The translations under genes were made by a program, and so were the position numbers. Below are positions 40,085 to 48,322 of a stretch of 64,000 bases of DNA, piece after piece. This DNA comes from Candidatus Tectimicrobiota bacterium (GTDB taxonomy: Bacteria; JACPUC01): positions 248,001-312,000 of the forward strand of contig JACPUC010000003.1 in assembly GCA_016192455.1 (NCBI GenBank), in the 5' to 3' direction. How positions within the stretch are numbered: the first letter of the stretch is position 1; every line of letters begins with the position of its first letter. The notes below the pieces were generated by a model. That model did no database searches, had not been told where the DNA came from, and was given only the letters and a program-made list of their open reading frames with translations.

Positions 40085-40299
40085 GAGACACCCTCCTCCC
40101 GAGCTGCGAGAAACACTGCTCCGGGCGTCACCGCAACGCCCCTCATCCCCCCCATCAACCCGGGGCCTTGCCGGCGCCTGGGCTGTTCGTCTCCTCGGCC
40201 GTCTTGATCTCGCCGCGCGCGCCGCAACCGCCCCGCGCAGAGCTCCGCGATCGAGCCCGCGGATCGCCCGTCCGCGCCCAACGCACTGGCGGCGCCGTT

Positions 40300-40405
40300 C
40301 TCTTCGAGCGCGCGCCGAACTCGAGCCGGCGGGAGAAGGTTTTCAAGGCGTTTCTTCTTCATTACACCCTAGGGGCATTACCGTTCCTTGACATCCGTCA
40401 AGAAA
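40300..40405 (+). repeat. 106-bp direct repeat, left copy
   Basis: Ungapped alignment with 43448-43553, 85/106 identical by hand count, 23-bp perfect core CGAACTCGAGCCGGCGGGAGAAG. Confidence 0.9.
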
Positions 40406-40530: not shown

Positions 40531-40755
40531 GTGAGCAAGTACCGGCTGAGCCAGGTCGCCAGGATGGTCGGTGTTGCCCCGATCACGCTTAAGCGTTGCC
40601 TGCTCGATGGCAGGATCGACGAGGTTGCGCGCGACCGGAACAACTGGCGCGTGTTCACCGACGAGGATGTTGAGCGGATTCGCGATTACGTGAACGTGAC
40701 TCGACCGCCAGAGGCGACACCGCTCTTCGATGGGCTGCGGAGGAGGCGGCGATGA
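40531..40755 (+). CDS. Small MerR-like (BldC/Xis-type) HTH protein
   Basis: YRLSQVARMVGVAPITLKR..GRI..RDRNNWRVFTDEDVERI. Confidence 0.8.
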   Translation: MSKYRLSQVARMVGVAPITLKRCLLDGRIDEVARDRNNWRVFTDEDVERIRDYVNVTRPPEATPLFDGLRRRRR

Positions 40756-41159
40756 CCGACATGGTGTCAGCCGAGAGACGCAGCCAGATCATGGCGCGGA
40801 TTCGTTCGACTGACACCACGCCAGAGATGACCGTGCGACGCCTCTTGCACCGCATGGGCTATCGCTTTCGGTTGCACGTTCGCGACTTGCCCGGCCGTCC
40901 CGACATCGTGCTGCCGAAGTACAAGACGGCGATTCTGGTCCACGGATGCTTCTGGCATGGCCACCGGTGCAAGGACGGCAGAAGGCCGAAGAGCAACATG
41001 GGCTACTGGAATGGGAAACTCGACAGGAACAAGAACCGAGACAAGATCAACAAGCAGCGCCTGAGGCGGGCCGGATGGAAGCCTGTCGTGATCTGGGCCT
41101 GTCAGTGCACGGAAGAAGACAGACTCATGGACATCATCAGAAATGCCCTCGATGAATAG
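40752..41159 (+). CDS. vsr: Very short patch repair endonuclease
   Basis: RSQIMARIRSTDTTPE, LPGRPDIV, VHGCFWHGH. Confidence 0.95.
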   Translation: MTDMVSAERRSQIMARIRSTDTTPEMTVRRLLHRMGYRFRLHVRDLPGRPDIVLPKYKTAILVHGCFWHGHRCKDGRRPKSNMGYWNGKLDRNKNRDKINKQRLRRAGWKPVVIWACQCTEEDRLMDIIRNALDE

Positions 41160-42177
41160 GAAAGCCATGGGCAAGGAACGCCGCAAGGTCGAGACGAAGT
41201 ACCGGCTCGTCTCATTCTTCTCAGGAATCGGTGGGTTCGACCTTGGGTTTGAGCGTGCGGGCTTTGAGATCGTATACCAATGCGAGATTAACGACTTCTG
41301 CAACCGAATCCTCGAACAACACTGGCCCGATGTCCCCAGGTCTAAAGACATCCGGAGGGTGAACCATGAAGAAATCCCGGACGCCGACGTGTGGGCCGCA
41401 GGTTTCCCCTGCCAAGATGTCTCTCTTGCAAGAATGGGCCCGCGATCAGGGCTTAGAGGGAAACAGTCTGGCCTCTTTTATGACTTTGCTCGGGTCATTG
41501 GGGACGCTCTGCCCGGAGTTGTTCTTATCGAGAACGTCGCAGGTCTCCTCTCTTCCCACGGAGGACGAGACTTCCAAGTCGTCATACGAACGCTGGCCGA
41601 ACTCGGGTATGCTGTTGGATGGCGTGTGTTTAACAGCAAGAACTTCGGAGTCGCCCAGTCGCGCCAAAGAGTCTACATTGTTGGATGTCATCGAGACTGG
41701 CGAACTGCCGCCGAGATACTTTTTGAGCCCCAACGCGGCAAAAGGAATGCTGACTCGCGCGGACAGAATGGGCAGGAATCTGTTTCCCCCTTTAAGAAGA
41801 GCTTTGGAGATCCTGTCAGAGGCCCAGTAGTCCAAGGCTTGGCCTACTGCTTCTACGCCTGCTCTGCACGCCACACGGGGACCGACTGGAGCCGAACCTA
41901 TGTAACCTATCCGGAGGGGCGAGTGCGGCGGCTAACTCCACGGGAAGGCGAGGCGATTCAGGGCTTCCCGGTGAACTGGACGCTCCCGAAAGACGCCATC
42001 GAGGATTCTGAAGACCTCGACGCTCTGCGCTATCACGCCGTCGGCAATGCGGTGACGGTCAACGTCGCGGAATGGCTCGCCCAACGCATCGCGGACGCTC
42101 TGGCCCAAAGCTCGGCAGAGCCGGCCGCAGCTAGACTTCCTGATTCTGACGGAGTTCTTCAAGGAACTGCACGTTAG
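41143..42177 (+). CDS. DNA cytosine-5 methyltransferase (alpha polypeptide)
   Basis: Motif I FSGIGG, IV GFPCQD, VI ENV, VIII QSRQRVYIVG, X GNAVTV. Confidence 0.95.
   Translation: MPSMNRKAMGKERRKVETKYRLVSFFSGIGGFDLGFERAGFEIVYQCEINDFCNRILEQHWPDVPRSKDIRRVNHEEIPDADVWAAGFPCQDVSLARMGPRSGLRGKQSGLFYDFARVIGDALPGVVLIENVAGLLSSHGGRDFQVVIRTLAELGYAVGWRVFNSKNFGVAQSRQRVYIVGCHRDWRTAAEILFEPQRGKRNADSRGQNGQESVSPFKKSFGDPVRGPVVQGLAYCFYACSARHTGTDWSRTYVTYPEGRVRRLTPREGEAIQGFPVNWTLPKDAIEDSEDLDALRYHAVGNAVTVNVAEWLAQRIADALAQSSAEPAAARLPDSDGVLQGTAR
41417..41830 (+). CDS. Nested out-of-frame C5-MTase beta polypeptide (M.EcoHK31I-beta-like)
   Basis: Alternative frame inside MTase encodes TSKSSYERWPNSGM..ESTLLDVIETGELPPRYFLSP..GMLTRA..LRRALE, resembling my recollection of the EcoHK31I beta subunit; start uncertain (41366 or 41417). 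Confidence 0.72.
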   Translation: MSLLQEWARDQGLEGNSLASFMTLLGSLGTLCPELFLSRTSQVSSLPTEDETSKSSYERWPNSGMLLDGVCLTARTSESPSRAKESTLLDVIETGELPPRYFLSPNAAKGMLTRADRMGRNLFPPLRRALEILSEAQ

Positions 42178-43312
42178 GCCAATCTTCCGGCCTCGCCGGC
42201 AGACGCTCCCCAGGAACCTGCCCCGCCAGTCCATCGAACACGTCCAAGCTGAAGGGCGTTCCGGCCTGCGCTATCGCCGCACGTGCCGCTTGCGAGACCT
42301 CAACGTGATAGTGCCCGGCGCGAGCAGATACGACGAGGATGCCCTCGTCGAAGGCCCAATGGCAAAGCTTGCATAGGCAAATGCCGTTGTCTGTCCTGTC
42401 GAGGTCGTAGTCGGCCCACGGGAGGATGTGGGCCGCATCGACGCCGGGCACTCTATTGAAGGGCGTAGGCGGGTACTGCTTACCGCAAACGAGGCACGTG
42501 GACCGGTAAGCGTCGCGCACCCGAACACGAAAGCGGGCGGTCTCTGTCCCCCGGTGTGCGGCCCATCGTTTCCACTCTCGAATCGTTCGCCGGCGGAGTT
42601 CGACTTCTTCGGGGTCGATGTCCTCGACCCGAACCGCAGGTTCGGCGATCTGAATGTCCAGGAGTTCAAGAAGCGGTGGCAAGGCGTCCGTGTATTCGTT
42701 GTAGGCGATGCCAAAGTCCGCTGCCTGGTCAGCCAGGACGGACTGAAGCTCTGACACAAGCCTCTCGGCTTCGGAATGCAGGGGACCGCCGCCGCGCACA
42801 AGGGCCTCATGGCGCTCGATGATCGCCTGCATTTCCGAGGGTAGTTTCTGCCTCTTCTGCCACAGCCGGACCACGCCGGCAACTCTTCTGTCAAAGTGAA
42901 GCTCTTCGGCCGGGTGGTCCGCATTCGACAAGACCACCTCGCCCACGGCCAGGGTCGCACGGCCTGCTTCGCGGTCTACGGCCTTGATCTCAACCGTCTC
43001 GATTGCATAGCGGCCCTTCTGGACGATTGGCATTCCGCCGCCCATTGTTACGTTCGATCTGATCGCCTCGGGCAGCAGCAGGACCGCGACAAGCTGGCGA
43101 TGCAGCTGCATGTTGGCATCAGGCCGGACGATCCGAATGCGGAACTTGCCTTGAGCATGAAGCAGTACGCATCCGGAGTCGAGAAGAAGGCCATCGCCAA
43201 GGTCCAACACGAGCCGGTGATCAACGAGGTCGTGCGGGGTTATCCCACCGGGCGCCTCTTCGCTGATCTCGTACTCGCCGCGACCGCCGCTTGTCCTTCG
43301 CGATATCCTCAT
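42131..43312 (-). CDS. HNH endonuclease, probable cognate restriction enzyme
   Basis: FRVRVRDAYRSTCLVCG..DAAHILP..NGICLCKLCHWAFDEG; convergent, 47-bp 3' overlap with MTase. Confidence 0.85.
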   Translation of the reverse strand: MRISRRTSGGRGEYEISEEAPGGITPHDLVDHRLVLDLGDGLLLDSGCVLLHAQGKFRIRIVRPDANMQLHRQLVAVLLLPEAIRSNVTMGGGMPIVQKGRYAIETVEIKAVDREAGRATLAVGEVVLSNADHPAEELHFDRRVAGVVRLWQKRQKLPSEMQAIIERHEALVRGGGPLHSEAERLVSELQSVLADQAADFGIAYNEYTDALPPLLELLDIQIAEPAVRVEDIDPEEVELRRRTIREWKRWAAHRGTETARFRVRVRDAYRSTCLVCGKQYPPTPFNRVPGVDAAHILPWADYDLDRTDNGICLCKLCHWAFDEGILVVSARAGHYHVEVSQAARAAIAQAGTPFSLDVFDGLAGQVPGERLPARPEDWPNVQFLEELRQNQEV

Positions 43313-43447
43313 GCCGTTTCAGAACCCTCGAACCCTCGGATGAACCAGAACGAGGGGCCATCCTATCGCTCGCCACGGCAATAGGCAATCCGTTACTTGA
43401 GACGGGATTAGATGTCGCTTTGGCCGACTTGGCGGCGAGGGCCCGCC

Positions 43448-43553
43448 CTCTTCCAGCGTGCGGCGAACTCGAGCCGGCGGGAGAAGATTCTTAAGGCTTC
43501 TCTTCGTCCTTACACCTTATGGGTGCTATTGTTCCTTGATCTTTGTCAAGAAA
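43448..43553 (+). repeat. 106-bp direct repeat, right copy
   Basis: Matches 40300-40405. Confidence 0.9.
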
Positions 43554-43969
43554 TCGCCGCATGGCACGGCGCCGTCGGGGCGAGAGGGACGCCCCCACTC
43601 CGCCGTGGTGCTGATGGTTCGGGCTTTCTAACATGTCAATCGACGGGCGCTCATACCCTTACGCTCTTGGAAGACGGCGGCGATGCCCTCCTGTGCCGAC
43701 TGCTCCACCAGGTGAAACGGCGGCTGCGGTCCCTGGGCTGGAGGATGCTGGCAACGCGGCTCTCCTTCCGTCCTATTGGCAAAGGATTGGAGCCTCGGGC
43801 GCGCCGCGGCCGGACGCGGGGCCGCCGCCGTCCGCGCGCGGCTTCTTGCGCAGGCTGGAAAACCGCGCTAGGCTGCGGGGTTCAAGGTAACGCCGCGGGC
43901 TTGCTGGCCGAGTACGCAACGGAGACCATGGGTAATGGCTGGTTCCTATCCGCTCGTGAAGGAGCTGAT

Positions 43970-46900
43970 ATGCGCCGTCGTCGCCTCGGGCGCGGCGCCG
44001 TTCGCGCCGTCGTTGCTCTTCTCCTCTTCCTTCTCCCTTGTTCCGCCGCGCTTGCCCAAGACGGGCTGACGCTGCGCCTCGAGCCGGCCCAGGTGCGGGC
44101 CGGGGAGACCTTGCGGTTTGAGCTGCGAGGCCGCCCGAACAGCGCTGTCGTCATCGCCGCCTCGCGGTCGAACAGCGGCCTGGGCGAGTTCGCCGGCCAG
44201 CCGGTGTTGCTGGGGGCCGACGCCTTCATCCTCTTTGCCGCGCGGACCGATGCCGGCGGCGTCTTCGCCCTCCGCCTGAGCATGCCGCCCGGGGTGGACG
44301 GCGCGTTCTTCTTCCAGGCGGCCCTGGCGCTGACGCCCGACTTCTCCCAGGCCCTCCTCTCGAACGGCGCCCAACTCGCCATCCAGGGCCTGCCGGCGCG
44401 CCCCGACACGGCTTTCATCCCGCACCTGGACGACGACGGCGACGGCATCCCCAATCTCATTGAGGGGAGCGGCGACACCGACGGCGACGGCGTGCCGAAC
44501 TTCCTCGATCCCGATGCGGACGGCGACGGCATCCCCGACAGCCAGGCGGCGGGAACGGCCGCGGCTTCACTGCTCGACACCGACGGCGACGGCGTGCCGG
44601 ACTTCCTGGATCAGGACGACGACGGCGACGGCATCCCCGACGTTGACGATGATGAGCCGCTGACGCCGATGGTGGCGGGGGATTTCCGCGGCGCCGAGCG
44701 CCTGGTCATCCGTTCCGTCGAGACGCGGGTGACGGGGCTGGCGCCGGCGCCGGCGGCGCGCCGCGGCGATCTCGTTGACCTGCTGGTGTCCGGCGCGGCC
44801 GGCGCGGCCGGCCTCGTTGTCCTCTTTGATGCCGGAGCCGGCGACGGCGCCCGGCTGTCGGTGGCGCCGCTGGCCGCGCGCAGCGAGCAGGACGGCTCCG
44901 TGCAGCGCCTGACGGTGCGGGTGCCGCCGGTCGCGCGCAGCGGCTCCCTGCAGGCGCGCCAGGGGGCGCTCCTCTCCGAAGAGGTGTTCCTGCAGATCGT
45001 GCCGGCCTCGCTGCCGCTGCTCATCGGCCAGGCGAACGACGATCCCGCCGCCCCCCTGATCGCCTCGGTGGCCCAGGATGCGCCGCTGACCCTCATCGGC
45101 GAGGAGTTCCGGCAGGACGACGTGGTGATGTTCAAGACGGGCGAGCCGTTCGAGCAAACGTTCACAAGACCCCCGACAACCGTCAGCGCCGACGGCAGGG
45201 AGCTCTCGGTCGGGCTGCCCGATGCGCGCGTGCAGCAGGTGTGGATCGCGCGGCAGGGGGCGGAGAGCAACCGGCTGCTGCTGAACGTCACCCGCCAGGT
45301 CGGCGGGCGTCTCGAGCCGCCGCCTGGGCTGAGCGCGGCGGACCTGCGCCTCGAGAGCGGTCTGCTCGCAAAGGCGACGCCCACCCCTGACGGCGCCTTC
45401 AGCATCGCCGCGCGCGCCGGGTCGCGCTCGCTCATCGAGGCGGTGGACGCCAACACCGGCGTCATCCGCCTCATGGCCTTTCTCGATCCCACCGTCGCCG
45501 AGGTGACGATCACTCCCCTCACCACGGTCGCCGCCCAGATCACCCGCGCCCTGCTGCTCGAGGCGAGCCTGGAGGAGTCTTCCCTGTCGCGGGCCCTGTC
45601 GATCATCGCGGAAACGCCCGAGGTGGCGGCCGCCGCGGCGGTGCTGGCTGAGCGCCTGCCGCTGAACCCGCTGCTGCTCCTCGGCGGCGACGAGGGGTAC
45701 GCGGCGGCCTTCGCCGGCGCCCTCGAAGCCGCCAGCGCGGCCGTGCGCGCCGCCCTCGACCAGGGCCAACTGCGCCGCAAGGAGCAGGCCGAGGCGTCGA
45801 AGAGGGCCGCCACCGTCCTGCCGCAGCAAGAGCAGTATGACATCATGATCTCCGAGGACCCGAGGCATCCCGGCAACCTGGTGGCCGAGAACGATACGCA
45901 ACTGCTCCTCAGCCTGCAGATGAAGGACAAGCTGAGCGCGCAAATCCTGCACCCGCATGCGCAGACTTTCTTCGACAGCAATGTCGTCGGTCCCCAGGGG
46001 GGCGGCCTGTTCTTCATCGCCAAAACGAAGGCGTTCAACCAGCCGAAAAACCGCGACGTCTTCGTCGAGGTCCTCACCGGGGGGTTGTTCGGCGAGGTCA
46101 CGCCGACGATGCTGCAGCAGCAGGCGAACGCGATGCTCAGGATACGGTTCATGCTCGAGCGGCTGTTTACGCCCGTCGTCAACATCGCGCTGGACGTCAT
46201 CTTCCCGACGGAACTCGGCATCCCCACCTCGACGCACCTGTTCGTCAGGGTGGTGAACAACTTCGGCGACGACATCATGCGCCGGCTGGCGGAGTTCAGC
46301 CTGCATGAGGAGAGCATCTTCGAGCTCGCCGCCTTTATGGGCCGCCTCCTCATCGAGGATGCCTTGCAGTTCCCCCCGGGCCCGGTGACCTCCGCCTTGA
46401 TCCAGGCCCTGCTGACGAGCAAGGGGGTCGGCGCGACGCTGGCCCTCATCGACGCGCTCGGCAAGCGCCTGGCGGCCCATCTCTCCACCATCGTCGCCGC
46501 CCTGACGATTGCCAGGGTGGTCACCAACATCGCCTCCATCGGCAAGGCGCTGGCCGACATCACCACCATCCCGGCGCTGGTCGAGTTCGACGTTGACTTC
46601 AACCAGCCGGAGGTTGACTCCATCGAGCCGGGCTGCGTTTCGTCGCGCCAGACGGAGCTGAACGCCGTCGCGCGCGGGCGCAATTTCCGCAGCCGCGACG
46701 ATGACCCCAGCCAGGAGCCGAACTTCGCCATCGGCATCAACTTCGACGAGGGAGGACCGATCGTCCGCCGCGAGGTGACCGCGCTCCCAGGAACGAACGG
46801 ACGCATCCTCGCCATCAACGCCGACGAGACCATCGCCCTGGTCCGCTTCGCCGCTCCCGCCGGCGCCACCTTCGCCAGCGGAGCGGTGCAGGCGCGCTAC

Positions 46901-48322
46901 GGCGTGGACTTCCCGCCGCCGCCAAGCTCGGCGCAGTTGCAGGTGGTCGAGGAGCCGAAGATCACCGGCGTGGAGCCGGCGCGCCCCCGCCGCGGCGAGC
47001 TGGTGCGCCTCAGCGGCTGCGGCTTCGCCCCCCAGCCCGCCAACAACGAGGTGACCTTCATTGATCTGAACGACGAGCGGCATGTCGCCCGCGTCGCGCA
47101 GGCGAGCGAGGAGGGGAACTACCTTCTCGCGCGCGTGCCGCAAGAGATGGAGCTGGGCCAGGGAGAGGTGACGGTCTCCAGCACCATCGCCGGCAGCACC
47201 CTCGCCTCGCAAGCAGCGGAGATCTTCGTCGACGGCATCAGGTTCAACATGGCGTTGCCAGGGAACATCCTCCCCGACCGCTCCTTCACCATGACGGTGA
47301 CGGCGGTGGACCCGGAAGGGCGAGTGCGCGAGGACTTCGACGAGCTGGTGCTCTTCCGGCTCTCGAGTCTGCCGGAGCTAATGCCGCCGGTCGGCGCGCC
47401 GGCGGTCATTGACGCGCCGTCCGGCGCCTGGCTGAAGGGCGTCTTCCGGACCGACGTGCAACGCTACGTCGACGGCGTCGAGGAAGCCTACCCCCTGGTG
47501 TGGACCGCCGAGCGCCTGCGCGACCCGAGTGACCGCGGGGTGGCCCATACGGTGGTGAACGGGGTGGAGCTCCACCTGGCCACCGTCGGCAGAGTTGAAC
47601 TCATTCAGGGAGCGGTGGACCTCTCGTTTGGCCCGGTCGATCGGCAATCGAGACTCGACGCATTCCCTGTAAGTCAGCTCGAATGTTGTGGCTCGTCAAC
47701 TCGGGGGCTTTTGGTAGTTTTGGGCCAGATTGCTCAGGTTATAAGTCTTGGAGTGGGGCCGAGAGGGGTCGAGATCATCCCGGAGCTTCCCAGCACCATT
47801 GACAGCGTGCTGGTGAGCGGGCAGGCCAATCTCGGAGGCAGGTTCGGCTTCACCCCAGATACGTTCGGCTTCGACGTTCATCGGCGTTTCCGGCGAGTGC
47901 CGGCGCGGCCCGTGCTGCACCACGTCGATGCTCACCAAGGTCCGCCGCCGATCGCCAGGAGCGGCGTCGAAGGTTTGCCGCCGGACGAGTTTTCCTTCCT
48001 CTCTGATGCGGGCCTTGCCGGCAGCCGCGTGGCCACCTTCATCGCCCCGCTCGCCAACACCAGCGACATAGGGTCCGCCGACCGCCTCGGCCTCCTGGCA
48101 ACTTTGGAGCAACGTCTTCTCGCTCCCTTCTCGTTCGTCATTGCCGCGGAAGGCCCGGAGCTGTTCCTCACCAGCTACCCAGACCCCGCGAGCGCGGCGG
48201 AATTCAGATCCTTTAGCCGCGGCGCTGTTTCGGGATTCCCCGGTGGGGGCGAATTCAGCGGAACAATTTTCCTGAGCGTTAGCGGTGATGTCCAGGTGTT
48301 CGGCTTCCGCAGGAACCGCTAG
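43970..48322 (+). CDS. Large secreted/surface protein with TSP3-like Ca-binding repeats and IPT/TIG-like Ig domains
   Basis: GAAGGAG RBS, signal peptide ending ALAQ; repeated DxDGDG(I/V)P(N/D); [24 protein letters not shown]. Confidence 0.75.

Follow-up and report, generated by a model that had tools for sequence, protein, structure and literature searches.

Does the cytosine methyltransferase gene analyzed here encode one protein or two? The gene occupies 41143..42177 of a 64,000-nucleotide stretch of contig JACPUC010000003.1 from a Candidatus Tectimicrobiota bacterium (positions 248,001 to 312,000 of the forward strand; this whole stretch is called the window), and an earlier note on this DNA had drawn attention to an open reading frame (ORF) nested within it on the same strand but in a different frame. 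Whether bacteria contain long genes that overlap on the same strand is disputed, and support for such genes seldom extends beyond a single genome. We conclude that this gene very probably codes for two proteins in two frames: a C5 methyltransferase chain, which we call alpha, and a nested chain, beta. The latter is homologous to the beta chains of M.EcoHK31I, an alpha/beta enzyme reportedly due to Lee, Kam and Shaw in 1995, and of the Streptococcus phage MM1; it likely binds alpha, and the pair would methylate the sites of a neighboring HNH nuclease. Three features are needed at the outset.

41143..42177, + strand: C5 cytosine methyltransferase, alpha chain, 344 amino acids (aa) (Pfam PF00145, E 1.6e-61)
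41366..41830, + strand: nested beta-like chain, 154 aa, coordinates including the TAG stop (+1-frame ORF, homology, constraint)
41354..41358, + strand: Shine-Dalgarno-like GGAGG within alpha codons (read from the sequence; putative ribosome-binding site)

The nested ORF is found where the earlier note had placed it, at 41366-41830 with 154 codons and an alternative in-frame ATG at 41417; a third possible in-frame start follows at 41426. It is offset by 223 nucleotides (nt) from the alpha start, which puts it in the +1 frame, and it lies wholly inside the methyltransferase gene. The GGAGG precedes the first ATG with a spacing of 7 nt, and the two ATGs are located at -41 and +10 nt relative to the codons for the PCQD of alpha. 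Of the 81 genes that make up the window and the 80 relatives described below, 60 have a start codon in the interval from -44 to -35 nt relative to PCQD, and in 54 of these it is ATG. The most conserved part of beta is its C-terminal ~80 residues.

The alpha chain scores 209 bits against PF00145 (cut-off 22) and 227.8 bits against TIGR00675 dcm (E 2.5e-67, cut-off 100.65). The C5 motifs I, IV (PCQ), VI (ENV), VIII, IX, and X are all within the alpha frame, with motif IX (RRLTP...QGFP) at residues 262-276. The closest match in the Protein Data Bank (PDB) is the monomeric M.HhaI (E 3.9e-35), which alpha matches over motifs I-VIII and IX-X. Monomeric C5 methyltransferases of the M.HhaI kind are not known to contain a nested beta gene. 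An alternative alpha start at ATG 41167 (MGK...) leads to a 336-aa form that is used by public gene calls and close homologues, and one library protein (P0001) is 100% identical to alpha at 336 aa. The family is a large one of 320-400-aa proteins; 7088 of 8000 scored candidates fall at E<=0.001, and its best 120 members are 62-100% identical to the window alpha.

The nested frame is kept open in diverged homologues. One genome per species was scanned, which returned 308 relatives, and the best 80 were used (57-72% identical); these span Planctomycetota, Chloroflexota, Acidobacteriota, Verrucomicrobiota, Actinomycetota, Proteobacteria, Bacteroidota, and other phyla. Variovorax sp. Root318D1, Devosia sp. 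Root436, and Agreia bicolorata are cultured carriers among the relatives. Sixteen of the 80 failed the motif-VIII pattern and, for that reason alone, were omitted from the span and stop counts, leaving 64. Across the shared span, every one of these 64, including those with a G+C content of 0.42-0.48, has a +1 frame that stays open for at least 155 codons, while the longest open stretch in the +2 frame is at most 39 codons. With a looser anchor, 81/81 genes (the 80 loci and the window) have a +1 ORF that reaches 136 codons or more. Stop counts over 65 genes (the window gene and these 64) give the same picture: inside the shared span the +1 frame contains 0 stops in 9897 codons and the +2 frame contains 468 stops, and outside the span the +1 frame contains 488 stops in 12682 codons. 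When the synonymous codons of each gene were shuffled 1000 times, 3.2 stops were expected per gene, and the probability of finding none was 0.019 in the median and 0.214 at most. The openness of the nested ORF is far beyond chance, and the observation is confirmed.

The third codon position of alpha is the second position of beta, and therefore any change that is synonymous in alpha alters beta. We assessed the resulting constraint as the normalized third-position entropy at conserved alpha residues, which takes the following values along the gene.

Alpha codons outside the ORF: 0.89-0.96
Alpha codons 73-108: 0.72-0.76
Alpha codons 109-180: 0.37-0.63
Alpha codons 181-228: 0.12-0.33
Alpha codons from 229, where beta stops: 0.90

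At four-fold sites, the mean entropy is 0.90 bits inside the ORF (n=85) versus 1.88 bits outside (n=63; Mann-Whitney p=6e-24). Over alpha codons 193-216, the conservation of the beta-frame residues is 0.83-0.86, compared with 0.56-0.62 for alpha and 0.58-0.60 for the +2-frame control; alpha is therefore a variable loop exactly at the most conserved stretch of beta. The lack of stops in the second frame of diverged homologues, together with synonymous constraint that is bounded by the ORF, shows at the level of sequence a dual-coding gene under selection in both frames. The dual-frame conservation in homologues that the earlier note had put forward as a check is borne out, both in the 0 stops among 9897 codons and in the constraint.

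We turn now to what the nested protein resembles. By BLASTP, beta matches a 176-aa nested ORF in the methyltransferase gene of E. coli S43 with 39% identity over 97 aa (E 1e-13), and the alpha chains of the two loci are 43% identical. The S43 protein is 309 aa in length, is named 'DNA cytosine methyltransferase', and is without motif IX; its 176-aa ORF, in the +1 frame, contains the beta domain, then a linker, and then a canonical motif IX. RefSeq annotates alpha in E. coli S43 and nothing inside the alpha gene. Residues 17 and 26 of the nested ORF are Met, and PMC2836561 describes internal start Met codons at exactly these positions in M.EcoHK31I beta; the S43 locus (L081) fits that description and is EcoHK31I-like. 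A DNA search of E. coli genomes matched six chromosomes, within the overlap region only. The S43 locus may be that of EcoHK31I itself, the alpha chain of which is reportedly 309 aa long. In E. coli S43 (L081 3524-4471), a convergent gene for a 315-aa 'hypothetical protein', presumably a nuclease, follows the methylase, and the locus sits among IS3 and IS66 elements and integrase fragments, next to a SIR2-family gene.

Profile comparison extends the resemblance to phages. The beta profile matches the GenBank-annotated beta subunit of phage MM1 with an hhalign probability of 99.3% (E 3.7e-20), and beta also matches phrog_16143, 'DNA methyltransferase', at E 4.4e-12. A library of 1.84 billion proteins contains 1992 representatives that match beta at E<=1e-3 and 340 at 1e-10; the best 150 of these matches are mostly free-standing calls of ~150-165 aa. 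Sequence searches of Pfam, NCBIfam, and the PDB returned no family for beta, the best E value of its profile against PDB sequences being 0.6, and the ESM Atlas contained unnamed 160-171-aa clusters only, mostly viral.

M.EcoHK31I is the experimental precedent for such a pair. PMC2836561 and PMC3404938 describe it as an alpha/beta C5 methyltransferase of E. coli (YGGCCR) whose activity requires both chains and in which progressive N-terminal deletion of beta leads to weaker association with alpha; beta is translated from its own starts (PMC2836561), and alpha is without motif IX, which is supplied by beta (PMC3404938). As in the window, beta lies wholly within the alpha gene on the same strand and in another frame (+1 in E. 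coli S43 and in the window), and the beta domains are homologous, by a comparison in which the S43 nested ORF stands in. The N-terminal, alpha-binding part of EcoHK31I beta corresponds to the whole of the window beta. The two differ in that EcoHK31I beta carries motif IX after a linker, whereas in the window motif IX is carried by alpha, and the window beta ends ~30 codons before it. The nuclease partner differs as well, as no HNH homologue was found in the S43 locus, where the 315-aa hypothetical gene is present instead. A further two-chain enzyme, M.AquI, is a C5 methyltransferase of two separately encoded polypeptides (PMC3404938). Compared by its description there, its two chains follow one another, motifs I-VIII on the first and IX-X on the second, with the break in the variable region; unlike in the window, neither chain is encoded inside the other and there is no additional domain.

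Phage MM1 provides a closer match in layout. In Streptococcus phage MM1-1998 (DQ113772), orf13 bears the annotation 'C5 methyltransferase alpha subunit', and orf14, nested within it, is labeled 'beta subunit'. The MM1 alpha (385 aa) has all motifs, including IX, and the MM1 beta (141 aa), in the +1 frame and without motif IX, spans from before motif IV to just past motif VIII. The differences from the window are that the phage methylase of MM1 is an orphan and its target-recognition region is long, that its alpha is 39% identical to that of the window over motifs I-VIII, and that no HNH or Vsr gene is annotated in its 2.8-kb stretch. By sequence, the window has the MM1-type layout, a type known from GenBank annotation alone. 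The nested pair is of a kind already known, by experiment for M.EcoHK31I and by annotation for the MM1 layout, and the window is a further member. The resemblance to M.EcoHK31I beta that the earlier note had proposed holds, through the S43 nested ORF (E 1e-13) and the match to MM1 beta. Its reading of the locus as a two-polypeptide methyltransferase is supported by the nested frame and the homology of beta; the layout is not that of M.EcoHK31I, since the window alpha has motif IX and the window beta does not.

A tblastn search of phage genomes found the beta domain in 168 records. Among the 25 phage rows listed, 22 matches fall under an annotated methylase-type gene and 3 are in records without annotation; a single feature lies under the match in 19, none in 3, and two in 3, which are the MM1 records. 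The hosts include Streptococcus, Vibrio, Clostridium, Mycobacterium, and Escherichia, and a Methanobacterium virus is among the records listed. The earlier note had expected that standard gene callers would miss beta, which agrees with these 19 of 25 single features and with the RefSeq entry for E. coli S43, where alpha alone is annotated.

To place motif IX in a wider sample, 80 metagenome loci were fetched with patterns for the beta domain and motif IX, and the beta domain was recognized by regular expression in 38. In these 38 scored loci, motif IX is in alpha in 34 (window-type) and in beta in 4 (EcoHK31I-type, with an alpha that is without motif IX); it is in both chains or in neither in 0/38. 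Three EcoHK31I-type metagenome loci were read individually (L086, L087, L089), and the beta frame is +1 in every locus read, namely, the window, E. coli S43, MM1, and these three. Metagenome genes of the EcoHK31I type have a beta frame that stays open along nearly the full length of the alpha gene, with 418 beta-frame codons open inside a 437-codon gene in L086 (2495-3808) and 351 inside a 437-codon gene in L089 (2083-3396), which makes these overlaps on one strand very long. The literature that we consulted, which includes few subscription journals and is weak evidence on this point, contains no account of the spread of the nested gene, of the strength of dual-frame selection, or of the either-or placement of motif IX.

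We also considered whether beta might be an ordinary in-frame target-recognition piece of monomeric methylases, which the library matches do not support. Longer proteins with the beta C-terminus number only 5; of these, 3 are without a Pfam domain and 2 have PF00145 (one of them also MerR), and P0135 is a frame-switching chimera. A protein with motifs I, IV, and VI, beta, and motifs IX and X in one frame occurs in 0 of the best 150 library matches. A derivation of the beta C-terminus from a frameshifted segment after motif VIII of monomeric enzymes was set aside by positional reasoning only, as the conserved LLDVIE shares bases with motif VIII itself and not with what follows it. Five library proteins of 330-440 aa (P0167, P0239, P0258, P0210, and P0180) combine in a single frame motif I, the beta domain, a linker of low complexity, and motif IX and are without motifs IV, VI, VIII, and X. 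In three loci related to them (L086, L087, L089), motif I is in the alpha frame. These one-frame proteins may come from frameshifted contigs or from frame-correcting gene callers, or they may represent a third layout.

How might the two chains work together? A structural model of alpha with beta gave an interaction prediction score from aligned errors (ipSAE) of 0.83-0.84 in 3 runs, versus 0.00 for the best of 3 controls. The partner has a predicted local distance difference test (pLDDT) of at least 77, and contacts agree between runs in at least 85%. The ipSAE mark that we applied is reached by 116/157 solved complexes and 2/215 mismatched pairs and is only roughly valid with alignments of one's own. 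The tightest modeled contacts are those of beta 77-83 with alpha 158-162 and of beta 118-120 with alpha 261-263, immediately before motif IX.

These contacts suggest the following mechanism. The main frame would give a complete C5 cytosine methyltransferase with motifs I-X, and the +1 frame, read from its own start at ATG 41366 behind the GGAGG, would give the 154-aa beta chain. In the model, beta most likely binds alpha by placing its conserved WPNSGM strand against alpha strand 158-162 and its YFL strand against alpha 261-263, just before motif IX, and it may be part of, or a brace for, the small target-recognition domain next to motif IX. A brace beside motif IX would fit the two layouts in which this motif is on either chain. 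The alpha/beta pair would methylate sites that are otherwise cut by the neighboring HNH nuclease, and Vsr, encoded next to it, would repair the T:G mismatches that arise from deamination of 5-methylcytosine. We infer that beta is translated, binds alpha, and has a role in methylation and, by analogy with M.EcoHK31I, that methylation would require it.

Several points weigh against this reading. With all ten motifs and a match to the monomeric M.HhaI, alpha might work alone. When folded by itself, beta has a mean pLDDT of 62.5, with residues 64-109 below 50, although its C-terminal helices are confident (pLDDT 93-95 at residues 120-151); a Foldseek search with this isolated model returned nothing at E<=0.001, to which we give little weight as the model is poor in its middle. 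The complex score is the model's own confidence and no measurement. Two of the 81 genes have no start codon between -80 and -20 nt, and the Shine-Dalgarno site is without visible constraint in homologues (entropy ~0.9, alpha codons 60-73). The homologues also share kinship, such that the counts are not independent trials; the saturated synonymous sites outside the ORF nevertheless argue for a divergence that is deep enough.

Among the alternatives, the one that survives best, although we consider it unlikely, is that beta is a real protein that acts as a regulator, either by timing methylase versus nuclease expression or by inhibiting alpha. Small control proteins are common in restriction-modification systems, no catalytic piece is missing from an alpha with all ten motifs, and the C-terminal helices of beta fold confidently alone. 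On the other hand, beta is homologous to the alpha-binding part of a proven subunit, that of EcoHK31I, the modeled complex is confident (0.84 vs 0.00), and beta has no match to a DNA-binding family in Pfam, in NCBIfam, or by fold; moreover, a separate gene for a MerR-type helix-turn-helix protein is already present at the head of the cassette.

A still less likely alternative, to which we give only a slim chance, is that ribosomes reach the beta frame by a programmed +1 frameshift, which would produce a fusion of the alpha N-terminus to the beta C-terminus. Public gene calls include chimeras that go from the alpha to the beta and back to the alpha frame, for example P0135, and the constraint is strongest in the 3' part of the ORF. 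However, the constraint already begins near the start, at codons 76-97, and the 5' end of the ORF has a conserved start codon in 60/81 genes; EcoHK31I beta has its own starts, according to PMC2836561, and we saw no conserved slippery site, although a systematic search for one was not made.

That there is no second protein, with both the open frame and the low synonymous variation owed to base composition, to codon bias, or to an element of DNA or RNA within the gene, is barely credible: long open alternative frames are frequent in G+C-rich genes, and the window gene (57% G+C), taken alone, has a 5% chance of zero stops, but the frame is open at 42-48% G+C too, 3.2 stops per gene are expected from shuffles in which the protein and its codon usage stay the same, stops abound in the +2 frame, the constraint terminates at the beta stop codon, the beta-frame residues outdo alpha in conservation in one stretch, no Rfam family matches, and near-identical recent copies are excluded by the saturated synonymous sites outside the ORF. 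A nested subunit that binds alpha is our preferred account of the locus.

The gene pair is part of a compact cassette, the remaining features of which are as follows.

40531..40755, + strand: small MerR-type helix-turn-helix protein (74 aa), first gene of the cassette (Pfam MerR_1, E 7.2e-06)
40752..41159, + strand: Vsr very-short-patch repair endonuclease (Pfam PF03852, E 4.2e-31)
42131..43312, - strand: HNH_2 nuclease, 393 aa, convergent with the methyltransferase gene (Pfam PF13391, E 3.2e-11)
40295..40405, + strand: 111-nt direct repeat, left copy (repeat search)
43443..43553, + strand: 111-nt direct repeat, right copy, 79-80% identical to the left copy (repeat search)

The genes are tightly packed. 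Read from ATG 41143, the methyltransferase ORF shares 17 nt (41143-41159) with the end of vsr, and its last 47 nt (42131-42177) also belong to the convergent HNH gene. The pairing with an HNH nuclease, which the earlier note had remarked upon, is supported by the HNH_2 domain match and recurs in the relatives: an HNH_2 homologue adjoins the methyltransferase gene in 72 of the 81 loci. A Vsr homologue is near the gene in 53/81 and a MerR-like homologue in 8/81. From its linkage, the HNH_2 protein is the presumed restriction endonuclease, and these counts suggest that the unit is a mobile restriction-modification cassette, presumably of Type II, that would repair its own deaminated 5-methylcytosine. 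The cassette is present in a single copy in the window's own genome. The beta chain was found in 0/100 sampled other genomes of the same domain, which indicates sporadic occurrence only, and a plasmid search with alpha returned distant methylases only, with at most ~34% identity. The 111-nt direct repeats bracket the whole MerR/Vsr/methyltransferase/HNH cassette with a spacing of 3148 nt, and no copies beyond these two are present in the 4.46-Mb assembly. The repeat pair looks like what a mobile restriction-modification unit might leave on inserting with duplication of a long target. Directly 3' of the cassette is an ORF of 1636 aa (43412-48322) with several Asp-rich DxDGDGxPD stretches.

An alpha/beta pair that has an experimental precedent and that is under two-frame selection across many phyla makes a good model of shared DNA. 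The window type, in which a complete-looking alpha is accompanied by a strongly conserved beta, makes the question of why a second chain is needed directly testable. Beta is absent from most annotations, and therefore methylases of this clade that have been cloned, expressed, or predicted as single proteins may be incomplete. We also put forward a broader proposal, which we hold to be possible but slightly more open to doubt than to belief: that an entire clade of C5 methyltransferases, spread over bacteria, phages, and an archaeal virus, has from ancient times required the beta domain as a partner, which is always encoded in the +1 frame across motifs IV-VIII, that a change of frame has transferred motif IX from one chain to the other, and that the window-type alpha depends on the hidden chain. 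If this is true, few nested genes on the same strand in prokaryotes would be as old or as widespread as beta, which would be mostly unannotated; motif IX would show how subunits can, in nature, trade a structural element that keeps its place in the DNA; and the complete-looking window-type methyltransferase would still depend on a hidden second chain.

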